Origin: a virus
Lineage: Duplodnaviria > Heunggongvirae > Uroviricota > Caudoviricetes
Direction: 5' to 3' (one strand)
DNA: 64,000 bases
Virus record (IMG/VR): IMGVR_UViG_3300035188_001315
Of the stretch, positions 6,089-62,059 are shown piece after piece (the first letter of the stretch is position 1; every line of letters begins with the position of its first letter). The translations under genes and the position numbers were made by a program. The notes under the pieces are model-generated. The model was not told the DNA's origin. It worked only from the letters and a program-made list of their open reading frames with translations, and ran no database searches.

Positions 6089-6484
6089 TTATTTACCTTC
6101 AACAACCGGTTCTTTACTATCAAAAAACTGTTGTACAACGGTAATCAAATCTCTGGGACTAAATGGTTTAGTTTTAAAAAGATTTGCACCTGCTGCAAGT
6201 CCTTTTTGAATATCATATGTGTTACCAGATATTAATATTAAAGGACAAGCTGGATTAATTTCTTTAATCATACGACATAGTTCGACACCATCATATTCTC
6301 CTGACATCATAATATCAGTAAAAACTATATCTGGATCAATCTCTTGATATTTTGAAAATCCTTCTTCAGCATTTACTGCTTCAAATAGTTGTATGTTTGG
6401 TTGACGTTTGAATGTTAAGTACATTAAATCACGAATGTTTTCACAATCGTCAACTACTAACAATTTAATGGGTTTATGTTTCAT
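6089..6484 (-). CDS. single-domain response regulator (CheY-like receiver)
   Basis: LLVVDD acidic pocket, phospho-acceptor D in FTDIMM, conserved T and K (KTKPF). Start codon 2 nt after the kinase stop, i.e. translationally coupled. Confidence 0.8.
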   Translation of the reverse strand: MKHKPIKLLVVDDCENIRDLMYLTFKRQPNIQLFEAVNAEEGFSKYQEIDPDIVFTDIMMSGEYDGVELCRMIKEINPACPLILISGNTYDIQKGLAAGANLFKTKPFSPRDLITVVQQFFDSKEPVVEGK

Positions 6485-6486
6485 AA

Positions 6487-7653
6487 CTATTTCACCGGAA
6501 ATAATAACCTAAATGTCGTTCCACAATTTTCAGGGTTTGTGTTAGTATCAACTAATAGATGACCACCGGCATCGTGTACCATACCACATACCGTAGATAA
6601 ACCTAAACCTGTACCTTCACCAATAGGTTTAGTAGTATAAAATGGATCAAATATATGTTCCAGTATATCTACAGGTATACCTGTACCATTATCTTTTACT
6701 GACAACTCAATAAACTTACTAGGAACTATATGTGTTACACATGATGTACACAAAGTTGGTTCTAATAATACTATAGATTTCAATGAAAGAGTAATGGTAC
6801 CACCTGATTTCATAGAATCTCTAGCATTCACTACTAAATTAGTAATAATTTGATGTAAATCAGTTGAATCAATACGAATATCTAATCTCAAATCAGTATC
6901 AACTTCCAAATTAAATTTACTTGTTAATGCAGGTCCAATCATAGATACAACCTCACCGATAACATCGTGAGTTGCACGTATTTCAGATGGTGCATCTGGT
7001 GGACTATGTCTAGAATAAGCCAACATTTTTTTGATGAGATTTGATGCTCGTTTTGCGGCTTTTTGAATTTCTTCCGCATTATGTAATATCTCATCTTTAA
7101 TATCGCCACATTCACAATCCTCAACAACCATAGCAGTTATATCATTATAACCTACTACACAATTCAAAATATTGTTAAAATCGTGTGCAATACCTGCAGT
7201 TAATCGACTGAGACTTTCGATTTTTTGCATTTGATTTATTTGCTTATTAAGAGTTACTAATTTAACTTTGTTTTCTTCACGTTCAGAAATATCCTCAAAC
7301 TCAGCCATATAACCAAGACAATGATTATCATTATCTCTAATAGTGGTACATCGGATAAATACAATCATATCTGCAAATTTTAAAACTGAACTTAGACATT
7401 TACTCGATGATTCGAGTAAATGTCTAAGTTTTGAAGGATCTGGATAAATATCATCAACATTCTTCCCAATAAGGTTATGTATATCAAACCAGGGAAGTCT
7501 AGCTTTGATTATTGGTTCTGCACTTTTAAATATATTAATTGCACTTTTATTAACATAGACAATATTGCGATCAACATCAGTTATTATCACACCAGTAAAT
7601 AATTTGTCTAATCCTAACTTCAATTTTATCCCAGTTGATTTGGACTGTGGCAT
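6487..7653 (-). CDS. cytoplasmic PAS-domain sensor histidine kinase
   Basis: N-terminal PAS-like region. H-box AGIAHDFNNIL, N-box NLVVNARDS, G1 DNGTGIP, G2 GTGLGLS. No TM segments. Confidence 0.8.
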   Translation of the reverse strand: MPQSKSTGIKLKLGLDKLFTGVIITDVDRNIVYVNKSAINIFKSAEPIIKARLPWFDIHNLIGKNVDDIYPDPSKLRHLLESSSKCLSSVLKFADMIVFIRCTTIRDNDNHCLGYMAEFEDISEREENKVKLVTLNKQINQMQKIESLSRLTAGIAHDFNNILNCVVGYNDITAMVVEDCECGDIKDEILHNAEEIQKAAKRASNLIKKMLAYSRHSPPDAPSEIRATHDVIGEVVSMIGPALTSKFNLEVDTDLRLDIRIDSTDLHQIITNLVVNARDSMKSGGTITLSLKSIVLLEPTLCTSCVTHIVPSKFIELSVKDNGTGIPVDILEHIFDPFYTTKPIGEGTGLGLSTVCGMVHDAGGHLLVDTNTNPENCGTTFRLLFPVK

Positions 7654-8713: not shown

Positions 8714-8784
8714 AACGGGATAGGGTATTCGAAACCCTGATAATTGAATGGAAATCAACGGTGTTACCACTACACTAATCCCAC
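8714..8784 (-). tRNA. tRNA-Gly (UCC)
   Basis: Manual cloverleaf: acceptor GTGGGAT/ATCCCGT, D stem GTGT/ACAC, anticodon loop TTTCCAT, T arm AGGGT-TTCGAAT-ACCCT. CCA not encoded. Confidence 0.65.
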
Positions 8785-8791
8785 ATTTTTG

Positions 8792-8874
8792 TGGTTAGGG
8801 TTGGATTCGAACCAACGAAGCACAGAGGCGGCGGATTTACAGTCCGCTGGAATTAACCACTCTCCCACCTAACC
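8792..8874 (-). tRNA. tRNA-Tyr (GUA), long variable arm
   Basis: Acceptor GGTTAGG/CCTAACC perfect, anticodon arm GCGGA-CTGTAAA-TCCGC, 14-nt variable arm, T arm GTTGG-TTCGAAT-CCAAC. Confidence 0.7.
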
Positions 8875-8895
8875 AATCAAATTTTATAAATTAGA

Positions 8896-9174
8896 TTATT
8901 TAGTCATTCTACTTTTAAATACCACATCCAATTTTGAATTTGTTTCTTCCGCAAATTTAGCTGCACGGTTTGCAGCTTCTTCAGCAGCTGTTGCCCGTGT
9001 TGTTGCTTCATTAGCCAATGCTTGAGCACTTTGTGCATCATGTGATGCATGTTCAACAGAAACTTTCAAATTGTCAATTTGTGATTGCAATTTCGTTACG
9101 TCACTTGTACTTGCACAACCAACAATAACTGAGGTAAATAAAAAAACTACTGCAACTTTACTTAACATTTTCAT
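8896..9174 (-). CDS. lpp-like: Braun lipoprotein (Lpp)-like small lipoprotein
   Basis: Signal peptide with lipobox IVGC. Ala-rich heptad coiled coil resembling Lpp. C-terminal Lys (the peptidoglycan-attachment position in Lpp). AGGAG RBS. Embedded in tRNA cluster. Confidence 0.6.
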   Translation of the reverse strand: MKMLSKVAVVFLFTSVIVGCASTSDVTKLQSQIDNLKVSVEHASHDAQSAQALANEATTRATAAEEAANRAAKFAEETNSKLDVVFKSRMTK

Positions 9175-9200
9175 AATAAACTCCTATATTTCAACTACGT

Positions 9201-9279
9201 ATTTGGAGCAGGACTTGGATAGATTTGAACTATCACTTTTGGAGTGGAACTCCAATGTTCTACCATTAAACTACACCTG
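9201..9279 (-). tRNA. tRNA-like element with Gly (UCC) anticodon arm, copy A, non-canonical
   Basis: D arm, anticodon arm TTGGA-GTTCCAC-TCCAA and T arm GATAG-TTCAAAT-CTATC are fine. Three extra nt lie between T stem and acceptor, with 2 acceptor mismatches. Identical copy at 10336-10414. Confidence 0.35.
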
Positions 9280-9361
9280 CATATTATACTATTTTATGAC
9301 ATCGGTGAATCAATCACTAAACGGTGATGCCATATATTAAAAACCTTACAGGTTTGTTATT

Positions 9362-9437
9362 TGGCTGGCTAGGTAGGGCTCGAACCTACGACAGAGTGAT
9401 TAACAGTCACTTGATCTACCAACTGATCTACTAGCCA
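9362..9437 (-). tRNA. tRNA-Asn (GUU), copy A
   Basis: Clean cloverleaf: acceptor TGGCTAG/CTAGCCA, anticodon arm AGTGA-CTGTTAA-TCACT, T arm GTAGG-TTCGAGC-CCTAC, encoded CCA. Identical copy at 11039-11114. Confidence 0.75.
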
Positions 9438-9627
9438 ATATTTTTAAAGGAGATACTTAACGATCCCACTTTTATTTATAATAATTATACAACATTTTTT
9501 TGTCAATTTAAAAACAAATTCAAAAATCTAAAAAGAGAGATTTAACCACTGTTCCTTTCACAATCCAATTATACAAGAAAAATTTGTGAAAGGAATATTA
9601 TAAAAAAGAAATCAAAATCATTAGAAA

Positions 9628-9664
9628 AAAAATCCTAACAAAATCAATTTGTTAGGATTTCTAT
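9628..9664 (-). terminator. rho-independent terminator for leftward tRNA operon
   Basis: atcctaacaaa/tttgttaggat hairpin followed by U-run on minus strand. Confidence 0.55.
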
Positions 9665-9669
9665 GTTTT

Positions 9670-9741
9670 AGCTCCATTCCGGAATCGAACCGAATTATCA
9701 TGATTACAAGTCAAGTGCATCGCCACTTATGCTTATGGAGC
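9670..9741 (-). tRNA. tRNA-Thr (UGU)
   Basis: Acceptor GCTCCAT/ATGGAGC, D stem GCAT/ATGC, anticodon loop CTTGTAA (one U-U mismatch in stem), T arm TTCGG-TTCGATT-CCGGA. Confidence 0.55.
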
Positions 9742-9746
9742 GTATT

Positions 9747-9821
9747 TGGTCAGAAGTGAGAGAATCGAACTCCCTTAATCTAGTTCCCAAAACTAGCGGA
9801 CAACCAATGTCCCAACCTCTG
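9747..9821 (-). tRNA. tRNA-Pro (UGG)
   Basis: Acceptor CAGAGGT/ACTTCTG (one G-U), anticodon arm CTAGT-TTTGGGA-ACTAG, T arm GGGAG-TTCGATT-CTCTC, CCA encoded. Confidence 0.65.
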
Positions 9822-9837
9822 AAATATATGGAGCAGG

Positions 9838-9975
9838 TAAGTTGGATTTGTACCAACATTTTACTATCAATCTACATCTGCACCATTCTAAATTTAATTT
9901 TCTCCTAGTTACGAACCACCGACTCGGTGATTAAAATAGTCAATTGCTCTACCAAACTGAACTAATAAGAGAAAA
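9838..9975 (-). pseudogene. two degenerate tRNA-like remnants
   Basis: Segments with recognisable D-arm (AGTTCAGTTTGGTAGAGC) and T-loop-like motifs, plus a tggagcagg start resembling the Gly-like repeat. No closable acceptor or anticodon stems. Confidence 0.3.
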
Positions 9976-10006
9976 TGATCTGGAAACCCTGATCAGTAAT
10001 AATATT

Positions 10007-10291
10007 TGGCATCCTCTAGTGGATTCGAACCACTGACCTACGGCTTAGCTTACCACTATAGTTTTCACTACCACATAAGTGTTTGTGGTCTGGACTTTCT
10101 CTTTACCATATCCTCTGAATTGGACTTAGGTAGTTGCCATTAAGTCTCTACACGTTCCCATTACTGGGCTTCGCTCGGGATTGACATTTTACAGTTTTCC
10201 CCGAATTTGACAACTTACATTCATAATGTTTCCACTATGACGCTCCAATGTATTCAAAGGCCGTTGCTCTATCCAGCTGAGCTAAGAGGAC
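10007..10291 (-). tRNA. tRNA-Arg (UCU) interrupted by a group I intron in the anticodon loop
   Basis: 5 prime half GTCCTCTTAGCTCAGCTGGATAGAGCAACGGCCTT and 3 prime half CTAAGCCGTAGGTCAGTGGTTCGAATCCACTAGAGGATGCCA assemble into a canonical cloverleaf with loop CUUCUAA. The two halves are separated by 208 nt. Confidence 0.7.
10049..10256 (-). ncRNA. ORF-less group I intron (Azoarcus/cyanobacterial tRNA-intron type) between anticodon positions 34 and 35
   Basis: Intron RNA contains GUUGUCAAAUUCGGGGAAAAC (P3-P4 core) and GUGUAGAGACUUAAUGGCAACUACCUAAGUC (P7 region), closely resembling the Azoarcus pre-tRNA-Ile intron. 5 prime exon ends in U; intron ends in G. Confidence 0.65.
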
Positions 10292-10335
10292 AAATTTTTA
10301 CCATTTAAAAAATTAATTTTATTTACACTTATTTG

Positions 10336-10414
10336 GAGCAGGACTTGGATAGATTTGAACTATCACTTTTGGAGTGGAACTCCAACGTTCTACCATTAAA
10401 CTACACCTGCATTA
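10336..10414 (-). tRNA. tRNA-like element with Gly (UCC) anticodon arm, copy B
   Basis: Near-identical to 9201-9279 (one substitution). Confidence 0.35.
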
Positions 10415-10484
10415 TTCCATTTATTCACAAAATGTATTATACAATAATATTTTGTAATAATTCATTTTTTTATAATTACTATTT

Positions 10485-10560
10485 TGGGGTAATTACTGAG
10501 AATTGAACTCAGATCATGTGAATCACAATCACATATGTTAACCATTACACCATAATTACC
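10485..10560 (-). tRNA. tRNA-His (GUG) with encoded G-1
   Basis: Acceptor GTAATTA/TAATTAC plus extra 5 prime G opposite C73. Anticodon arm TGTGA-TTGTGAT-TCACA, T arm CTGAG-TTCAATT-CTCAG, CCA encoded. Confidence 0.7.
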
Positions 10561-10953
10561 ATTGTTTGGTGGACCTGGCGAGTTCTGCCCCTCGCGTCCA
10601 TAAATAACCACACTTAAAGTACTACACGTTTATTTCAATTTTATTTTTCATTTCTTAACAAAAATGAACAAAATGTTAAAAAATATATTCCGTAACTTTA
10701 GTTTGAATTCTATTTCCAGAATGTATAGAATTCTATCTTGTGTCCATGACACCCAAACGATAATCAGATTATCTCTATTCGCACAAGCACAAATAGTTGA
10801 GTGGGTAGATAGGGTGTTTAAGCCGCTACTGCTACCTGGTAGTAAGAGTCATTTGCAATTACTTTAAATTTGGATCGTTTAAAGAGAACTCCACCTCTAC
10901 GTGCACTTCAAAGCTTCATCATCTATGTCGATTCTGATTCAAGCCCTAAATTT

Positions 10954-11030
10954 TGGTAGCGGATGCAGGATTCGAACCTACGATTCTTGGCTTATGAGAC
11001 CAAGCGGATGACCACTTCCATAACCCACAT
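10954..11030 (-). pseudogene. tRNA-Met (CAU)-like element with non-pairing acceptor ends
   Basis: Good T arm GTAGG-TTCGAAT-CCTGC and anticodon arm TTGGT-CTCATAA-GCCAA. The 5 prime segment repeats ATCCGCT instead of complementing it. Confidence 0.3.
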
Positions 11031-11038
11031 TTTTTATT

Positions 11039-11114
11039 TGGCTGGCTAGGTAGGGCTCGAACCTACGACAGAGTGATTAACAGTCACTTGATCTACCAAC
11101 TGATCTACTAGCCA
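11039..11114 (-). tRNA. tRNA-Asn (GUU), copy B
   Basis: Identical to 9362-9437 including about 12 bp of each flank. Confidence 0.75.
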
Positions 11115-11164: not shown

Positions 11165-11450
11165 TTAAACACCTAAAAATAACATTATACAATAAAAAAT
11201 TTCATTTATCAAGATTTTTTAAAAAATATTTTTTTCATCACTTCTTAAAAATAACATTATACAATAAAAAATTTCATTTATCAAGATTTTTTAAAAAATA
11301 TTTTTTTCATCACTTCTTAAAAATAACATTATACAATAAAAAATTTCATTTATCAAGATTTTTTAAAAAAATATTTTTTTCATCAATTCTTAAAAATAAC
11401 ATTATACAATAAAAAATTGCATTTATCAAGATTTTTTAAAAAAAAGGGGA
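11165..11450 (-). repeat. four tandem ~72-bp repeats, each carrying a consensus sigma70 promoter directed leftward into the tRNA cluster
   Basis: Each unit on the minus strand reads cTTGATAaatgaaattttttattgTATAATg (TTGATA-17-TATAAT) with an A/T-rich UP-like tract. Copies start at about 11181, 11253, 11325, 11398. Confidence 0.6.
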
Positions 11451-11650: not shown

Positions 11651-11887
11651 TTAAAATGAATTTGGTTTAGCAACTGATCTCGTGATTGCCATTAATCCTT
11701 TTTGTAAATCAGTTTTTCCTACAGTTAACCACCAAGTATCAGTAGTTTCAATGGATTCCAATTTTTCAATCAGATTACCCAATTTTTCGCCAATATCCTT
11801 AATTTCATTTATTGCAGAAACTTCTTCTTCAGTTAAGTTTCTGTATCCTTTGATTTTTTGTTTTTCTTCTGTCATCATAATCTCCAA
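11651..11887 (-). CDS. hypothetical protein (78 aa)
   Basis: ORF, acidic, upstream of 295-aa gene on same strand. Confidence 0.4.
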   Translation of the reverse strand: MEIMMTEEKQKIKGYRNLTEEEVSAINEIKDIGEKLGNLIEKLESIETTDTWWLTVGKTDLQKGLMAITRSVAKPNSF

Positions 11888-12858: not shown

Positions 12859-13995
12859 TTATTCAAACAATTCATAAGAAATAGTATCAAATCCTTCACT
12901 GTACATTGGTAAAGTAAAAGTGGTCATCATATCAAGCATAACCTGTCTGGAAATTCTTTTACCCGTTTCCATTTCTCGATTTTCTGAATGCTCCATAAGT
13001 TTATCAAATCCTTTCAAAAATAAAATACAATGTTTTTTATAATTTGAAGGAAATGTGTTTATCCATGATCTACGTCTTTTTTTGCTCATCATAGTCATAT
13101 CAACCAACACAGACTTGTTATGTTGTTTTGCATCCAGTGTCAAAGATTCAATGAGATTAGAAACCTCATTTTTTTCTATCTCTTTGTTTTCATTCAAAAA
13201 ATTGAAAGCTTCATTATAACCAGAAAGATTATATTTTACAACCACTTGTTCAACCAAATCATCTCGACTAATAACTACCATACCAGGATGTGATAACAAA
13301 ATTTTTTCCCGTTCAGTAGATTTACCACTACAAGGTGGTCCACATAAAATAATCAGTTGTGGATTATCATCAATTTGCATAATTGGAGTATTATCAACAA
13401 GTTGATCAACAACATTTTTTACATTATCAAACGCTACATTTGAAATTGCAGAAGCAGTACCTTCTTTCCAAAATCTACCAGCTGCATCAGCTTTTACTTG
13501 ATATAAGAGATGATGTAATAAGGTTTTTTCATTTTTAAATGTTTCAAGCAACTCATATTTTACACTACCATCCGATTTAATGAAATTAAACAAACTACCA
13601 TGTAAGGCAATAATTTTGAAAATCAAAACTTTATCATCCACCGATAAAGAGCTTTTGTTCATCACATCTAATGATAAGAAAGCACTGATTCCTTCATGAC
13701 CGATGAAATTAACTCGTTGTTTTTCCTCATTAACTTTTCTAGCTAATGGTTTTCCAATATCATGCAACAATGTAGACCATCGGACATAACCATTTTCAGG
13801 TACAAAATTTTGTGCTTGTAAACACACCATCATAGTATGAGTGAATATAGATCCCTCAATATGATACGGATTTATTGTGGTTTCATCATAATGATGAGTC
13901 GATGCACACATTGTTTTTACCAAATGTGGAAATTCTACCTGAAACCATGAAACTAAATCACTGGTACTCGTTGTCAAATCTATTGTATCTGGCAT
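12859..13995 (-). CDS. HD phosphohydrolase domain fused to P-loop kinase domain (polynucleotide kinase/phosphatase-like, RNA repair candidate)
   Basis: N-terminal H ... HD motif (HIEGSIFTHT ... LLHDIGKP). C-terminal Walker A GPPCSGKST. Confidence 0.6.
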   Translation of the reverse strand: MPDTIDLTTSTSDLVSWFQVEFPHLVKTMCASTHHYDETTINPYHIEGSIFTHTMMVCLQAQNFVPENGYVRWSTLLHDIGKPLARKVNEEKQRVNFIGHEGISAFLSLDVMNKSSLSVDDKVLIFKIIALHGSLFNFIKSDGSVKYELLETFKNEKTLLHHLLYQVKADAAGRFWKEGTASAISNVAFDNVKNVVDQLVDNTPIMQIDDNPQLIILCGPPCSGKSTEREKILLSHPGMVVISRDDLVEQVVVKYNLSGYNEAFNFLNENKEIEKNEVSNLIESLTLDAKQHNKSVLVDMTMMSKKRRRSWINTFPSNYKKHCILFLKGFDKLMEHSENREMETGKRISRQVMLDMMTTFTLPMYSEGFDTISYELFE

Positions 13996-14205
13996 TTATA
14001 ACTCCTTGATATTATTCACTTTTATTATTATACAACATTATTTCGATTTAGTCGAGGATTTTTTACCCGTTTTGAAATTATTTTTGTTAAATTTTAACGC
14101 TATATTAATAAGGGGTTTTAGCCGAACAAATGCACGTTTCTGAATATTGGGGTTTTTGCCGTTTTTTCCACGCGCCAACCCAACTTAATTCACTAGATAA
14201 AATTT

Positions 14206-14485
14206 GAATGGATTTTGATTTCCTCTAATGGATTTTTTTCAAAATAAGTTTGACATGAAATTTCCAAATTGACCTGATCGATTTTTTTCAAACTAGATTT
14301 TGATTTCCTCTAATGGATTTTTTTCAAAATAAGTTTGACATGAAATTTCCAAATTGACCTGATCGATTTTTTTCAAAATAATTGATTTGATTTTTTTGAG
14401 ATGATTTTGATTTCCTCTAATGGATTTTTTTCAAAATAAGTTTGACATGAAATTTCCAAATTGACCTGATCGATTTTTTTCAAAC
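14206..14485. repeat. three direct repeats of ~85-105 bp
   Basis: gattttgatttcctctaatggatttttttcaaaataagtttgacatgaaatttccaaattgacctgatcgattttttt occurs 3 times (about 14211, 14297, 14403), each with paired TTGACATG/TTGACCTG motifs. Confidence 0.7.
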
Positions 14486-14652
14486 TGGATGCTTTTTGCT
14501 TTTCGCTTTTTGCTGAAAGCAGATCCTCTCCTCAAGGGAGTCTCTTTTTTAAAAGAGGCTCCTCTTTAATATTCTTAATATCTATTCTTTAGGAAATTTC
14601 GATCGTTTTTTTGCCCTTATTAATAAGGCGTTTTTTCGGAAATGCAAAAAAA

Positions 14653-14823
14653 TTTATGTGCAAAATAATGGCAATGAGGTAAAATTTATGTGCAAAATAA
14701 TGGCAAAAATCAAAATTTATGTGCAAAATAATGTGCCTTGGCGCATTTTATGTGCAAAATAATGTAATTTTATTGTGAATAAATATGGTAAAATACCAAA
14801 AAATTCACATTATTTTGCACATA
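14653..14823. promoter_or_regulatory. iteron array: four direct 18-bp repeats at ~31-bp spacing plus one inverted copy overlapping the rep start region (putative origin/autoregulation)
   Basis: tttatgtgcaaaataatg at 14653, 14685, 14716, 14747. Inverted cacattattttgcacata at 14806-14823, 15 bp before the rep ATG. Confidence 0.65.
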
Positions 14824-14837
14824 GGAATAGGTAAAAA

Positions 14838-16058
14838 ATGCAAAAATACGACAGAAATAATTACGAGTTTAAAAAACCGTCAGGGGTAATTCAGAGTAAA
14901 ATTTTTAAAATCGTCAACAAAAAACGAGTGCATTATGAGTTAAATCCGATACAATTTGACACGATGAATTTGATGATGTACAAGGTCAAAGAATCACTGA
15001 TTGTCCAATATGGGTCCACAGATAACATCATTGATAAGATTCAAAATGATTATGATACGTTTGAAAAAATCATTGATACTCACTGGTATGAAATATCATT
15101 AAGTGAATTATTTAACTTTGTTAATCGATCACAAAATAATCATAGTATAATACATGAAGCCTTAGATGAACTAACTGAAGTAAAGATAAAAACTAATATT
15201 TTTGATAAAAATAAAAATGTTGGTCAAACCACTTTTAACTTAATTCGCAAGTATTCAAAGTTTAAAAACAAAATAAAATTTAAACTAGAACCTGAATTAT
15301 TTCAAATGATTTTATTGCAGAAACCGTTGACTGATGAAAGTTTTGCGGTTTTGCGATTAAAAATACAAGCACAGAATTTAAAAACTGTAGGTTCGAAAAG
15401 ATTATATGAATTTTTAAAGGATTGGGAATTTAGAAATACAGTAACAGTAACGATAAGTGATATTAAAATGATTATGAATTTAGATGAAAATAAAACAAAT
15501 AATCAAATATATGCAACAATTAATAGAGACCATATTAAAAAAGCTGTTAATGAAATTAATTACAGTTCAGATATAAAAGTATCCTATACACCCATAAAAG
15601 AAAAATCCGCCTATGGAAGGTTACAAGTAACTAAAATAAAATTTTTAATTGAACCCCAACACCAATCAAAATTAGATGAATTAGGTTTAACACCACCAAA
15701 AAACAACAACACCAAATTTTATAACAAATCAAAAAATAAATTAGATAAATTGATTAGTACCGGTTATAAAGTTATTGATGAAACATTATGGATTGAAACA
15801 GATATTAAAAAGAACGAAGAGAGGTATGATGCAGAAGTCAGAATTGATACTTGGTTGAAAAATACTCCACAGGATGACAGAAATAAAATTTATGAATTAC
15901 TAGCAAAATCAATGGATGATTGTGACGAACAATTTATTACTATCGATGGTTATTTAATTAAAGGGGTATTTTCAAATGATGCCTATACTAAGAATCCAAT
16001 GGAAACCATTGCAGTTATGAATTCATTTCTTGGATCATTAACTAGCACAGGTGAATGA
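14838..16058 (+). CDS. rep: replication initiator (Rep)-like protein
   Basis: 406-aa basic protein directly downstream of the iterons; only plus-strand gene in this block. No enzymatic motifs. Assignment by context. Confidence 0.5.
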   Translation: MQKYDRNNYEFKKPSGVIQSKIFKIVNKKRVHYELNPIQFDTMNLMMYKVKESLIVQYGSTDNIIDKIQNDYDTFEKIIDTHWYEISLSELFNFVNRSQNNHSIIHEALDELTEVKIKTNIFDKNKNVGQTTFNLIRKYSKFKNKIKFKLEPELFQMILLQKPLTDESFAVLRLKIQAQNLKTVGSKRLYEFLKDWEFRNTVTVTISDIKMIMNLDENKTNNQIYATINRDHIKKAVNEINYSSDIKVSYTPIKEKSAYGRLQVTKIKFLIEPQHQSKLDELGLTPPKNNNTKFYNKSKNKLDKLISTGYKVIDETLWIETDIKKNEERYDAEVRIDTWLKNTPQDDRNKIYELLAKSMDDCDEQFITIDGYLIKGVFSNDAYTKNPMETIAVMNSFLGSLTSTGE

Positions 16059-16059
16059 C

Positions 16060-16098
16060 GAAAAAAAAGGATTCTTTTTTTAGAATCCTTTTTTTAAA
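16060..16098. terminator. bidirectional terminator
   Basis: aaggattctttttttagaatcctt hairpin with A8 and T7 flanks. Confidence 0.65.
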
Positions 16099-16101
16099 TT
16101 T

Positions 16102-16365
16102 TTAAGCTGGTTGAATTTTTTCACCATTCCAATAAACCAAGAGTCTTTGTTTAAATGAATAAGCCCCTCGTTCAGTAGTTATATTACCAAATGGATTAAT
16201 TTCTTTATATTTTTCAATAGCATATTCGTTATTTTCTAATAACACTGAATAAGTATCAGCTTGAGGTTCGACAACCACATCATTTAAATCCAAACCAAAA
16301 AAAGATGCAACAAGTTGTCTTTCCGATCTTTCTGCTTCTTTTGGTAAATCTTTTACTCTCATCAT
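16102..16365 (-). CDS. hypothetical protein (87 aa)
   Basis: ORF. Confidence 0.4.
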   Translation of the reverse strand: MMRVKDLPKEAERSERQLVASFFGLDLNDVVVEPQADTYSVLLENNEYAIEKYKEINPFGNITTERGAYSFKQRLLVYWNGEKIQPA

Positions 16366-25618: not shown

Positions 25619-26185
25619 ATGAAAAAAATGAGCACATTATTTAAAGTCGATTACTATAAAAAAGGCATACCTGGAATTATTTATGATTTGGTTAGACCGG
25701 AAAATGAGTGGGTTTTTTCAGATTCATCCAATGTTACCATTACTAGAAAATGGGATGGTCAGGCAACAGCTGTTATAAATGGTAAACTATTTAGACGATA
25801 TGATGCAAAGCATGGTAAAAATATACCTAGCGGAGCAATTCCCTGTTGTGGACCTGATCCCGTAAGTGGTCATCATCCTCATTGGCTAGAAGTAACCGAG
25901 TCAACGAGAAATGACCAATTTTTATGGCAACAGTGGCTTCAACAAAAACATCTGATGACCGATGGAACCTATGAATTTTGCGGTGAAAAAGTAGGTAATA
26001 ATAAAGAAAACATAGTTGGTCATCAATTTATCAGACATGGTACTGAGACCTATGATGTTCACCCTTTGTCATTCGACAATATTAAACATTTTCTTGAAAA
26101 TCAAAACGTTGAGGGATTAGTTTTTCATCACATTGATGGAAGAATGTGCAAAATTAGAAAAACCGATTTTGGATTGATTAGATAG
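25619..26185 (+). CDS. hypothetical protein with nucleotidyltransferase-like KxDG motif
   Basis: TRKWDGQAT resembles ligase motif I. Weak. Confidence 0.4.
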   Translation: MKKMSTLFKVDYYKKGIPGIIYDLVRPENEWVFSDSSNVTITRKWDGQATAVINGKLFRRYDAKHGKNIPSGAIPCCGPDPVSGHHPHWLEVTESTRNDQFLWQQWLQQKHLMTDGTYEFCGEKVGNNKENIVGHQFIRHGTETYDVHPLSFDNIKHFLENQNVEGLVFHHIDGRMCKIRKTDFGLIR

Positions 26186-40899: not shown

Positions 40900-40935
40900 A
40901 ATAAATGGTAAATTTAATTTTTTTTGGAGGTAATT

Positions 40936-41604
40936 ATGAAAAAATATCCTAGAACATATCATTTACCTTTTAGTCCAGAGGTTCATAGTGATGATAAAAT
41001 TTGTGATTTGGGTGATTTAAATCGTATAATTGATGAAAAAATTGAAGTAGTTATCTTAGTTAAGCTAGATGGTGGTAATGCATGTTTATCAAAAGATGGA
41101 GTTTTTGCAAGAACACACGCACAAGAAACTTCCTGTCCAACGTTTGATTTTATAAAAAATGTGCATTATTATCAAAATTTAAATGACTTAACTGAACAAA
41201 ATTTAAAAATTTTTGGTGAAAATATGTTCGCAGTGCACTCAATTGTGTACGAAAATCTCAAAGATTATTTTTATGTTTTCAATATTTTGGACGAAAATTC
41301 AAATAATTTTTTAAGTCATGATGAAGTTGATGAATGGGCTACAGCCCACAAAATGCAAGTGGTTCCAAAAATTTACGAAGGGGTGATTCCTTCTTTGACA
41401 TGGTTAGAAAAATATTTGGCACTGATGTTGTCAAAAAATGACCTTGGTGGTCCGCGAGAAGGATTTGTTATTCGCACAAAAAAAGCATTTTCAAGTGATG
41501 ATTTTTCAAAAAATGTGTTCAAATATGTTAGAAAAGATCACGTACAAGACAAAAATAATCACTGGTCACGTAACTGGGTTCAGCAACCAAAATTAGTAAA
41601 GTGA
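40936..41604 (+). CDS. RNA ligase-like nucleotidyltransferase
   Basis: N-terminal KKYPRTYHLPFSPE signature and KLDGGN (motif I KxDG). GGAGG RBS. Confidence 0.55.
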   Translation: MKKYPRTYHLPFSPEVHSDDKICDLGDLNRIIDEKIEVVILVKLDGGNACLSKDGVFARTHAQETSCPTFDFIKNVHYYQNLNDLTEQNLKIFGENMFAVHSIVYENLKDYFYVFNILDENSNNFLSHDEVDEWATAHKMQVVPKIYEGVIPSLTWLEKYLALMLSKNDLGGPREGFVIRTKKAFSSDDFSKNVFKYVRKDHVQDKNNHWSRNWVQQPKLVK

Positions 41605-41812
41605 AATTCTTGGAGGAAAAATGCAAGCATATGGGTTAAAAAGGTTCCTAAGTGTAAGAAAAAAATCTACAAAACGACATTGGAAACATGTTGCTAGAGC
41701 CTCTGTAAAAAAAATAATTTGTGAAAATTTTTAATTTTTTTTGGAAAAAACTCTTGACAATTGAGAATATTTTTGCTATAATAACCCATCAATCAAATAA
41801 AGGAAATTGAAA

Positions 41813-42901
41813 ATGAAACGAGTAATCAAATATTCAAGTATCGAACAGTTCAACCAAGTTATTCGTACTGTAAAAGAACGTGCAGCATTTATGTATTTTG
41901 ATGAAGAAACACAAAAAGCTGTGTTTGATCCTGCACCTAACTATCCAGTAGTATTAGCTAAAGTTACTGAAAAAATTCACGGTACTAATGGTTCGATTTG
42001 TTTTTCTAATCCAGATGGTTTTTGGGTTCAATCTAGAACTAATATTATTACCCCAGAATCCGATAATGCGTCATGTGCGTCGTACGCCATGAAAAATAAA
42101 GATGAATGGTTATCGATCGTAAACTCTTTAGCGACCGAGTATAATATCGACCTAGATAATAACATTATCGTGATGTATTTTGAATGGTGTGGTGATGGCA
42201 TTCAGAAAAAAACTGCGTTAACTGGTACGTCAGATAAAATGGCAATTATTTTTAGTCATTTTAAAGTGGAACCAATTGATGACGTCGATGAAGATGATGT
42301 GGGATCAGTGCAGTCGAATTGGTTTGAAACAAAAGTAGGTGATAAATGGGTTTCTTCACCTGAAGCTAACATTTTCAATATCAACGATTTCCCAACTTAT
42401 GAATTCACAATCGATTTTAATAAACCATTAATGGTTCAAAATGAGATGATCTCGTTGGTTAAAGAAGTAATTGAACCTGCTTCACCAGTTGGCAAGAAAT
42501 TCGGTTTTGATGCAAACATTGGTGAAGGAATCGTAGTTACATTTATTTTTAAAGACAGATTATATAAATTCAAGGTAAAAGGTGAGGCTCACACAACTTC
42601 TAAAGTAAAAACGTTGAATAGAGTTGATGATGAAAAATTGCAAAAAATTCAGGATATTGCTCAGAAAGTTTCACCGGTCTGGAGACTTGAACAAATGTTT
42701 GATTTGGCAATTGATGCCTTAAATGGTGGTAAACCCGATATGACCAAAATGGGTGATTTCATTAGACTGATTTCTAATGATATTATCAAGGAAGAAATTG
42801 ATATTATCATTGATGCAGGTTTAGAACACAAAACCATTATGCCTGTTGTTTCTACAATTGCCAGACAGTTCTTTAAAGAAAAATGTCTAGAATCTGAATG
42901 A
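41813..42901 (+). CDS. Rnl2-family RNA ligase-like protein
   Basis: EKIHGTN matches T4 Rnl2 motif I (KIHGTN). Promoter at about 41752; terminator at 42912-42941. Confidence 0.55.
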   Translation: MKRVIKYSSIEQFNQVIRTVKERAAFMYFDEETQKAVFDPAPNYPVVLAKVTEKIHGTNGSICFSNPDGFWVQSRTNIITPESDNASCASYAMKNKDEWLSIVNSLATEYNIDLDNNIIVMYFEWCGDGIQKKTALTGTSDKMAIIFSHFKVEPIDDVDEDDVGSVQSNWFETKVGDKWVSSPEANIFNINDFPTYEFTIDFNKPLMVQNEMISLVKEVIEPASPVGKKFGFDANIGEGIVVTFIFKDRLYKFKVKGEAHTTSKVKTLNRVDDEKLQKIQDIAQKVSPVWRLEQMFDLAIDALNGGKPDMTKMGDFIRLISNDIIKEEIDIIIDAGLEHKTIMPVVSTIARQFFKEKCLESE

Positions 42902-61567: not shown

Positions 61568-61892
61568 CCGTAAAAATGCCCACCAAACAAATTATTTACC
61601 GAAAAACGGCATAGCGAATTAAAATTTTTGTATAATAGTGACATGAAACCATTTTTTAAAAATATTCATTTAGTGGGCGAAATTAACCGTACTAGCAACT
61701 GAAAAATTGGGTTAAAAAATCGGTCGCACGGGGAAACGCTATATAAATAAGGGAAAATAGCCGAGTGTCAAAATTTTTTTACCAGATTTCGGGTTTAGAG
61801 ACGGCGGAAAAATTCTCGTTGTGCCATAAGACTTCAACCAAATTTTTTCGTGAAAAGTCCCAAAAATACCTCGAAAAATCATGAAAAGTCCT

Positions 61893-61996
61893 TCTAAAAG
61901 TTCTCCAAATTCATGCTAGTTTTCTTCTAAAAGTTCTCCAAATTCATGCTAGTTTTCTTCTAAAAGTTCTCCAAATTCATGCTAGTTTTCTTCTAA
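61893..61996. repeat. three tandem 34-bp repeats
   Basis: ttctaaaagttctccaaattcatgctagttttct x3 in noncoding DNA. Confidence 0.7.
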
Positions 61997-62059
61997 ATTT
62001 CCCCTAAATCTACTAACAGTTTCACTCTCAATATTCGGATAATTTACATGGTCACATTC

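Follow-up and report, generated by a model that had tools for sequence, protein, structure and literature searches.

The plasmids RK2, F, P1, R6K, and pPS10 possess iterons of 17–22 bp (PMC4980987), and in F and pPS10 an AT-rich region is located on the far side of four direct iterons, which lie upstream of the rep gene and are followed by an inverted iteron at the promoter or leader (PMC4980987). The unwinding element of iteron plasmids is AT-rich, contains repeated 13-mers and adjoins the iterons, and the initiators TrfA and RepE show sequence-specific binding to a single one of its two strands (PMC4980987, PMC4081077, PMC10602881). Host DnaA boxes occur in many, although not all, origins of iteron plasmids. 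The 64,000-nt stretch of DNA analyzed here (the window; IMG/VR record IMGVR_UViG_3300035188_001315) derives from a tailed phage, and its segment at 14.1–16.1 kb displays the same order of elements as F and pPS10. A preliminary description of this segment, made from the letters of the DNA alone, had claimed an iteron-type origin, a Rep of plasmid family and an operator for autorepression inside a phage genome, and this claim is upheld by the membership of the encoded protein in the Rep_3 family, by the non-random occurrence of the repeats and by a layout that is kept in related loci. We consider it rather probable that the segment constitutes a self-contained iteron-type replication origin cassette of a probably virulent jumbo phage. 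To our knowledge, little is known of how jumbo phages begin to replicate their DNA, and mapped origins are available for very few such phages; the cassette provides a concrete candidate for an origin and its initiator in an uncultured lineage of phages of 230–300 kb.

The 842-bp intergenic region that extends from the end of a leftward gene at position 13995 to a rightward open reading frame (ORF) at 14838–16058 holds every noncoding element described here upstream of that ORF, and it is identical in two independent assemblies (L001 and L003). The ORF, termed rep (plus strand), had been called the only rightward gene of its block, which holds for ORFs of at least 100 aa between positions 2921 and 23276. 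Its product of 406 aa consists of N-terminal strands together with a first winged helix (WH1, about aa 36–195), a second winged helix (WH2, about aa 196–284), and an acidic C-terminal domain (aa 285–406, nt 15690–16055). The preliminary description of the protein as basic with 406 aa is correct for its length and for its overall isoelectric point (pI) of 8.85, but only the N-terminal 284 aa carry the basic charge whereas the C-terminal 122 aa are acidic with a pI of 4.9. An intrinsic terminator hairpin detected by a terminator scan (16062–16095, a 14-bp stem between runs of A and T) closes the cassette downstream of rep, ahead of a convergent leftward gene at 16102–16365.

Comparison of Rep with Pfam gave a score of 30.2 bits for Rep3_C (WH2, PF21205; cut-off 21.1 bits; aa 205–270) and a marginal score of 23.7 bits for Rep3_N (WH1, PF01051; cut-off 22.4 bits; aa 64–194), the latter domain being clear in most homologs (41.1 bits in the case of P0021). 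The window Rep gave no match to the Pfam family RPA (PF10134), which we take to be possibly the family of P1 RepA, and a match to RepE in NCBIfam remained below threshold. In PHROGs, phrog_4402, annotated as "replication initiation protein", was matched at 1.3e-15. When a profile constructed from 35 homologs was compared with the PDB, its positions 46–260 matched RepE (2z9o, 3.3e-9; 1rep, 1.1e-8) and pi (2nra, 1e-8). An AlphaFold2 model of Rep, obtained with a mean predicted local distance difference test score (pLDDT) of 83.4, was compared with the PDB by Foldseek and retrieved complexes of RepE54 with iterons (E 8e-10; template modeling scores of 0.74–0.81, normalised to the target), pi (2nra, E 5e-8), and domains 2–3 of RctB (7.5e-6). 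Also, the model matches 8aan/8ac8, in which a Rep is present with double-stranded iteron DNA and single-stranded DNA of a DNA unwinding element (DUE). These results establish, by sequence and by fold, that Rep is a two-winged-helix initiator of the Rep_3 (RepE/pi/RepA) family, with the fold and both Rep_3 Pfam domains in common with RepE of mini-F (acting at oriS) and RepA of pPS10, and with a sequence identity to RepE of about 17%.

Upstream of rep, four direct iterons TTTATGTGCAAAATAATG(G/T) are located on the plus strand at 14653–14765 and end 73 nt before the ATG. They are exact copies of 18 nt which start at 14653, 14685, 14716, and 14747, at start-to-start distances of 32, 31, and 31 bp (three helical turns), in agreement with the four 18-bp iterons about 31 bp apart that had been reported initially. 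A scan of the 64 kb with TTTATGTGCAAAATAATG yielded five matches, four direct and one inverted, where 0.66 were expected, and as none of 100 shuffled sequences reached five, the repeats are non-random, as had been claimed. No iteron copies were found elsewhere in the 64 kb, including the inside of rep, and a second iteron cluster for copy control, of the type of incC in F or incA in P1, was likewise not present in the 64 kb. The inverted iteron (14806–14823, minus strand), a putative operator, is complementary to iteron 3 in 18 of 18 nt, and in the scan, which placed the inverted copy at 14808–14825, its 16-nt core at 14808–14823 matched TTTATGTGCAAAATAATG exactly. It had been said to overlap the start region of the gene and it does lie in the 5' leader, between an extended −10 element and the ribosome-binding site and 15 nt before the ATG at 14838, but the start codon itself is left free. 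The putative extended −10 element of rep, TGGTAAAAT, can be read on the plus strand at 14786–14794, downstream of the last direct iteron and upstream of the inverted one, and no 40-mer of the region is less stable than the one that contains it. On the inverted iteron, Rep would be positioned just downstream of this promoter, which fits autorepression, and by analogy with plasmids this iteron is presumed to be the site at which Rep dimers exert it.

From a large protein database, 45 relatives of Rep were obtained and for ten of them the upstream DNA was examined. All ten loci (designated by L numbers) contain 3–4 direct repeats at the same place relative to rep, with nearly all spacings between 28 and 33 bp, whereas the sequence of the repeat in one locus is unrelated to that in another, and the respective Reps are 28–60% identical to the window Rep. 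Four copies of TGTTAAAAAATAATACTT (spacings 32/31/29) are present in L024, whose Rep is 60% identical, three copies of TGTTAGAGTTCTTAGTT (32/31) in L022 (52%), four copies of TTCATTTTCTATTGGGA (31/31/28) in L006 (46%), four copies of AAATCNATTTTAGTTTTGGTTGT (32) in L007 (43%), and three copies of a 32-nt unit (32/32) in L012 (45%); L013, L018, L045, and L164 show the same pattern of an iteron array. An inverted copy at or just before the start of rep was found in L024, L006, L022, L013, L045, and L164 and was not detected in L007 and L012. Either TGTATAAT or TGGTAAAAT is located at the place of the extended −10 element in L007, L012, L013, and L018, and L006 has TATAAT without the TG. Because position, number, and phasing of the repeats are kept while their sequence changes together with that of Rep, the repeats appear to be the cognate initiator-binding sites of a conserved layout, and chance and simple repeat instability are excluded as their source.

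The DNA shared upstream of the iterons is far better conserved than the Reps or the iterons. An AT-rich block, CCTCTTTAATATTCTTAATATCTATTCTTTAGG, at 14560–14595 contains tandem T-rich sub-repeats of the type TATTCTTTA, and its consensus, CCTCTTTAATATTCTT(T)AATATCTATTCTTTAGG, is nearly invariant in eight loci whose Reps are 38–60% identical. The block occurs once in the window, has an AT content of 80% and coincides with a local minimum of duplex stability, and in 7 of the 8 loci a distance of 70–80 nt separates its end from the first iteron. As iteron plasmids carry an AT-rich region of 13-mers beside their iterons, the block is probably the DUE of the cassette. A scan of IMG/VR for orphan origins, made with a degenerate pattern of the block, proved too unspecific, since among the matches listed a Rep adjoined the pattern in 3 of 118 newly fetched loci and in L013. 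A structured RNA in the conserved upstream block was considered and rejected (RNAalifold on seven loci gave 0 pairs), as was a known RNA family in the intergenic region, for which Rfam returned sub-threshold noise only.

Two copies of a further motif bracket the long repeats described below together with the AT-rich block. The upstream copy, Box 1 (TATATTAATAAGGGGTTTTAGCCGAA, 14101–14126), is a direct repeat of 14618–14641, and Box 2 (14615–14641), located between the AT-rich block and the iterons, consists of a perfect palindrome CCTTATTAATAAGG (14615–14628) followed by CGTTTTTTCGG. Exact copies of TATTAATAAGG occur in the window only at 14103 and 14615/14618. The motif TATTAATAAGG-N-GTTTTTT is kept at the position of Box 2 in L006, L007, and L012 and is degenerate in L013, L018, and L022; the paired arrangement is also found in L007 and L012, and L006 has a degenerate upstream copy. 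Box 2 may be a site for an accessory or architectural factor. In addition, a conserved TTGCTGAAAGCA box is followed by a terminator-like 12-bp hairpin with a T-rich tail (14510–14563, plus strand; hairpin at 14536–14563), which was detected by the terminator scan. The box is kept in L006, L007, L012, and partly in L013. The hairpin is present with an altered stem in L006 but has been lost from L007 and L012, and we therefore do not count it among the core elements.

Three direct repeats of about 90 bp with paired TTGAC boxes, which had been noted upstream of the iterons, are indeed present at 14203–14490. Their copies start at 14203, 14288, and 14395, have an 85-nt core and spacings of 85 and 107 nt, and are 92–96% identical across 96 nt; Tandem Repeats Finder reports periods of 85 (100% match) and 107. 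Each unit contains two copies of TTGACMTGA 19 nt apart, two copies of GATTTTTTTCAAA, and one GATC; all six copies of TTGACMTGA in the 64 kb are located in these repeats and GATTTTTTTCAAA also occurs six times in them. Two 68-nt repeats are present at the equivalent relative position in L012. The long repeats of the window were rejected as degenerate iterons (best match 12/18, p=0.21), as were those of L012, and they were rejected as tandem sigma-70 promoters, since only one weak match was obtained, in the second copy, which is a variant. In the IncHI2 plasmid R478, too, long repeats accompany short iterons (PMC4980987), and those of the window could be a control element, an enhancer or a centromere. 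On the minus strand (14193–14483), each unit also holds a TTG-initiated ORF of 27–36 aa (MKKIDQVNLEISCQTYFEKNPLEEIKI...), and these short ORFs, for which no ribosome-binding site is visible, are probably spurious. Three independent assemblies break inside the long repeats. The distance from the start of the assembly to the ATG of rep is about 381 nt in L002, L004, and L005, 297 nt in L023, 238 nt in L024, and 15 nt in a contig of sample 3300059473, and these repeated breaks, in the long repeats or the shared AT-rich block, probably result from sequence that is repeated within or between co-occurring genomes.

By analogy with RepE of F, pi of R6K, and TrfA of RK2 (PMC4980987, PMC4081077, PMC10602881), Rep monomers would bind the four iterons cooperatively and on one face of the helix, as 31–32 bp correspond to three turns. 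About 60 bp upstream, the AT-rich block would be melted by the resulting complex, to which one of the separated strands may stay bound, and the acidic C-terminal domain, a part that plasmid Reps lack, would then recruit the helicase or replisome of the phage itself. Rep dimers on the inverted iteron would repress transcription of rep. Initiation at the cassette is probably of theta type and takes place early in infection, and related phages would run two such origins with orthogonal specificities and a shared C-terminal adaptor. From known replicons such as F and pPS10 the cassette differs in the three-turn period of 31–32 bp, compared with iterons of 17–22 bp in the plasmids named at the outset, in the additional acidic C-terminal domain of 122 aa, in the lack of DnaA boxes and of a second cluster resembling incC, and in residing in a phage genome of at least 228 kb, some relatives of which contain two cassettes per genome. 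Iterons of model plasmids are packed at about two turns.

The C-terminal domain (aa 285–406) was modelled as helices with a beta-hairpin at a pLDDT of 89.2. Among 1.84 billion proteins it was found in 29 representative clusters, nearly all of them with the domain at the C-terminus of Reps of this clade, and it is the best-conserved part of Rep, with a mean identity of 51% as compared to 31% for WH1. Two contigs contain two cassettes each, on opposite strands: L006 (L006/L010) and L012 are located about 120 kb apart on the 306-kb IMG/VR contig UViG_3300035665_000001, and L045 and L164 about 45 kb apart on a 73-kb scaffold (ENA scaffold_42 of ERZ23495385). Iterons differ within each of these pairs, and the paired Reps are 26–42% identical in their winged helices and 68–77% identical in their C-terminal domains. 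Similarly, the winged-helix region of the window Rep is nearest to L024 (63%) and L022 (53%) whereas its C-terminus is nearest to L006 (75%), L012 (71%), and L007 (68%), from which it follows that the modules for DNA specificity and the C-terminal modules differ in their history. Such discordance would arise if winged helices and iterons formed an exchangeable module whereas the C-terminus was constrained by a partner that the phage encodes. As neighbours of rep in the relatives include topoisomerases, PhoH, and helicases (DnaB-like and others, with inteins), the obvious candidate for this partner would be the helicase or replisome of the phage. Taken further, giant phages of this group might have several orthogonal Rep-iteron origins per genome, with winged-helix and iteron modules swapped by recombination and a shared C-terminal domain docking the paralogs onto the replisome, the cassette of the window being one such origin and its long TTGACMTGA repeats an extra, lineage-specific control; this extension is tentative and we regard it as possible rather than probable. 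If a multi-origin picture with swappable specificity is true, it would mean modular multi-origin licensing in a virus, natural orthogonal initiators and possible parts for synthetic replicons; if it is false, the cassette is another Rep_3 replicon, notable mainly for its residence. The plasmid machinery of RepE and pi has been adapted to giant viral genomes by three-turn spacing, a new C-terminal domain and, in relatives, two orthogonal copies.

Some relatives show further peculiarities. A DnaB-like helicase and an SF2 helicase, both containing inteins (Intein_splicing/Hint), are encoded near rep in L022 (1–815 and 6690–7835). The 43%-identical Rep P0009 of L007, which adjoins a topoisomerase, co-occurs with the window Rep in three samples and may belong to the same phage. 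In P0004, P0021, P0030, and P0035, proteins of 550–590 aa, a T5orf172/MUG113 domain (GIY-YIG clan) is fused to the N-terminus of WH1-WH2, and this fusion may indicate that some forms of the initiator are mobile or associated with a nuclease.

Several observations weigh against the interpretation of the cassette as the origin of a virulent phage. Binding of Rep, melting of the AT-rich block and firing of the origin are all steps that we infer. DnaA boxes, for which a search had been proposed, are not enriched (18 matches to TTWTNCACA as compared to 18.5 expected) and none is conserved; apart from one match at 14774–14782, those nearby are nearly all accounted for by the iterons, and an identity of the iterons as DnaA boxes was rejected because the relaxed-box match is absent from the iterons of the relatives. 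The AT-rich block, although conserved, is not exceptional for this AT-rich genome, its instability reaching only about the 97th percentile. GC skew, which had been proposed as a further source of evidence, was calculated and rejected: there is a local change of sign caused by the single plus-strand gene, the cumulative minimum is located at the switch to divergent transcription near 23 kb, and since skew tracks gene orientation, it does not support an origin independently. Outside the clade, the C-terminal domain has no analog in sequence or structure, so that recruitment of a phage helicase or replisome by this domain is a guess. The three long repeats are left unexplained by a model of an origin for lytic growth, and a second system for replication initiation, a partition system or an integrase could lie outside the approximately 84 kb (window plus flanks) that were inspected of a genome of at least 228 kb. 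Finally, the varied neighbourhoods of rep and the fusions to T5orf172/GIY-YIG-clan domains are also compatible with a semi-autonomous mobile module.

Such a module would be a selfish or hitchhiking mini-replicon of about 2 kb, spreading among giant phages and over-replicating or maintaining itself without being the principal origin, which we judge unlikely. It would account for a lone rightward gene in a leftward block that is bracketed by its own signals and a terminator, for neighbours that vary from structural genes in L006 to a topoisomerase in L007, DnaB and other helicases in L022, and Sir2 in the window and L013, and for the two contigs with two copies each. The discordant similarities of winged helices and C-terminal domains imply recombination, and the T5orf172/MUG113 domain present in the fused variants is common in mobile phage genes. 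However, the cassette encodes Rep alone, and no recombinase or packaging signal and, in this copy, no nuclease were seen. The position near Sir2 and rIIB is common to L013 and L018, at least 12 contigs, drawn from at least 5 samples, encode the exact protein, and the C-terminal domain tracks the phage background and not the DNA-binding module, as expected if it is fitted to replication proteins of the phage.

The identical Rep is encoded on a metagenomic contig of 227,833 bp, and relatives of Rep are found on viral contigs of 224–306 kb in IMG/VR, one of which carries Gp23-like and tail genes. The element is an uncultured jumbo phage with a GC content of about 31% and a contig of at least 228 kb, and it is probably virulent. 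Genes of the window include rIIB, Sir2, an HD/polynucleotide-kinase-like gene, and dozens of small genes of no known function. DNA similarity to deposited phages or to plasmids (PLSDB) was not detected, a tblastn search of INPHARED with Rep gave no phage record at E <=1e-3, 72,556 plasmids yielded only weak partial matches to the Rep protein (29–35%), and in 185,579 bacterial and archaeal species, each represented by one genome, no close relative of Rep was present, the best match being 31% identical over the winged-helix part only. Within the approximately 84 kb no integrase, ParA/ParB, repressor, or other lysogeny gene is annotated.

These data bear on the proposal, made in the preliminary description, that the element replicates as a plasmid prophage (phage-plasmid) or uses an initiator derived from plasmids. 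In the first case, the cassette would be the maintenance replicon of a plasmid prophage, replicating at low copy number by theta replication in lysogeny like RepA/oriR of P1, and other functions would be responsible for lytic replication. Iterons combined with an operator for autorepression are indeed the copy-control layout of low-copy plasmids (PMC4980987), the long direct repeats beside the origin could be a centromere-like or incompatibility element, and a small serine recombinase (Resolvase) is encoded near rep in L022. Lack of partition genes and of an integrase in the approximately 84 kb, of a second iteron cluster of incC/incA type in the 64 kb and of close relatives in bacteria or plasmids, together with a gene content like that of large virulent phages (rIIB, tRNA cluster, RNA repair, anti-CBASS sponge), leads us to favour an origin for lytic growth over a plasmid-prophage replicon, and two cassettes of different specificity in one related genome are hard to square with single-copy control. 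A role as prophage replicon is accordingly doubtful and the second case, the use of a plasmid-derived initiator, is the one favoured. Very improbable is a third possibility, that the protein is a Rep-derived DNA-binding protein without a role in replication, acting as a regulator on the repeats or as a device against competing plasmids or phages: dimers of Rep_3 proteins are genuine transcriptional repressors (RepE operator complex 2z9o) and origin activity is something that we infer where neither DnaA boxes nor a skew signal are seen, but a repressor would need the inverted site alone, four phased repeats with an AT-rich block at a fixed distance across ten loci constitute the architecture of an origin, and the conserved extra domain and the helicase and topoisomerase neighbours in relatives point to replication.

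Among phages, P1 with RepA, oriR, and incA resembles the window phage in having an autoregulated iteron-binding initiator inside a phage genome. The P1 genome also contains incA as its second iteron cluster, the parABS partition system, and functions for lysogeny, and counterparts of these were not found in the 84 kb. Phage lambda follows the same logic at ori-lambda, where the N-terminal part of O binds four iterons by an AT-rich region and its C-terminal part recruits the helicase, which in lambda runs through P and DnaB, and a protein annotated as "Replication protein O" in BFVD is a weak fold match to the window Rep (E 1e-3). However, the iterons of lambda are located inside the O gene whereas those of the window lie upstream of rep, O is not a member of Pfam Rep_3, lambda is not known to have an inverted iteron of operator type for autorepression, and it is a temperate phage of 48 kb. 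T4 is, like the window phage, large, and T4-like features are found here (rIIB, and the Gp23-like protein in a relative). Multiple origins per genome are present in T4. Its oriF/uvsY and oriG employ a middle promoter, a DUE, and an R-loop primer and are not known to need a dedicated origin-binding initiator or to contain iterons; a Rep protein and iterons are present here. The remote homologs phrog_4402 and A0A6J5MGL1 of BFVD (COG5527; Foldseek against BFVD, E 1.5e-10) share the fold of the window Rep, and as such proteins have already been annotated, plasmid-type initiators in tailed phages have a precedent; the C-terminal domain sets the window Rep apart from them in a separate small clade. 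In the searchable literature, no description of iterons, of a multi-copy arrangement, or of modular shuffling was found for phage Reps of the phrog_4402/COG5527 type, and no paper linking iterons or Rep_3 with jumbo phages.

In the remainder of the window, the HD/KTI12/AAA_33 polynucleotide-kinase-like gene (12859–13995) is located directly upstream of the origin region, and three ORFs of the RNA ligase family are present at 25619–26185, 40924–41604, and 41807–42901; three RNA ligases and a polynucleotide-kinase-like gene suggest a toolkit for RNA repair. By comparison with Pfam, a gene resembling the Acb2/Tad1-hairpin sponge family (anti-CBASS/Thoeris) was detected at 11651–11887 and a pair of histidine kinase and response regulator at 6089–7653, all on the minus strand, and large hybrid PAS-HisKA-response-regulator proteins occur in the relatives L007 and L164. 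The stretch between 8.7 and 11.1 kb is free of ORFs because eight genes for tRNAs (Gly, Tyr, Asn, Thr, Pro, His, Met, Asn) are clustered in it (8714–11114, minus strand). An alternative genetic code behind ORF-poor stretches was considered and rejected, as no reassignment of a stop codon clearly improved coding. Immediately upstream of the tRNA cluster as transcribed, a tandem array at 11174–11443 contains 3.7 copies of a 72-nt unit (97% match), whose minus strand reads TTGATA-17 nt-TATAAT, and to judge from these motifs the array looks like tandem strong promoters of sigma-70 type driving the tRNAs. A second tandem array, located at 61891–61997, consists of 3.2 copies of the 33-nt unit CTTCTAAAAGTTCTCCAAATTCATGCTAGTTTT with a match of 100%.

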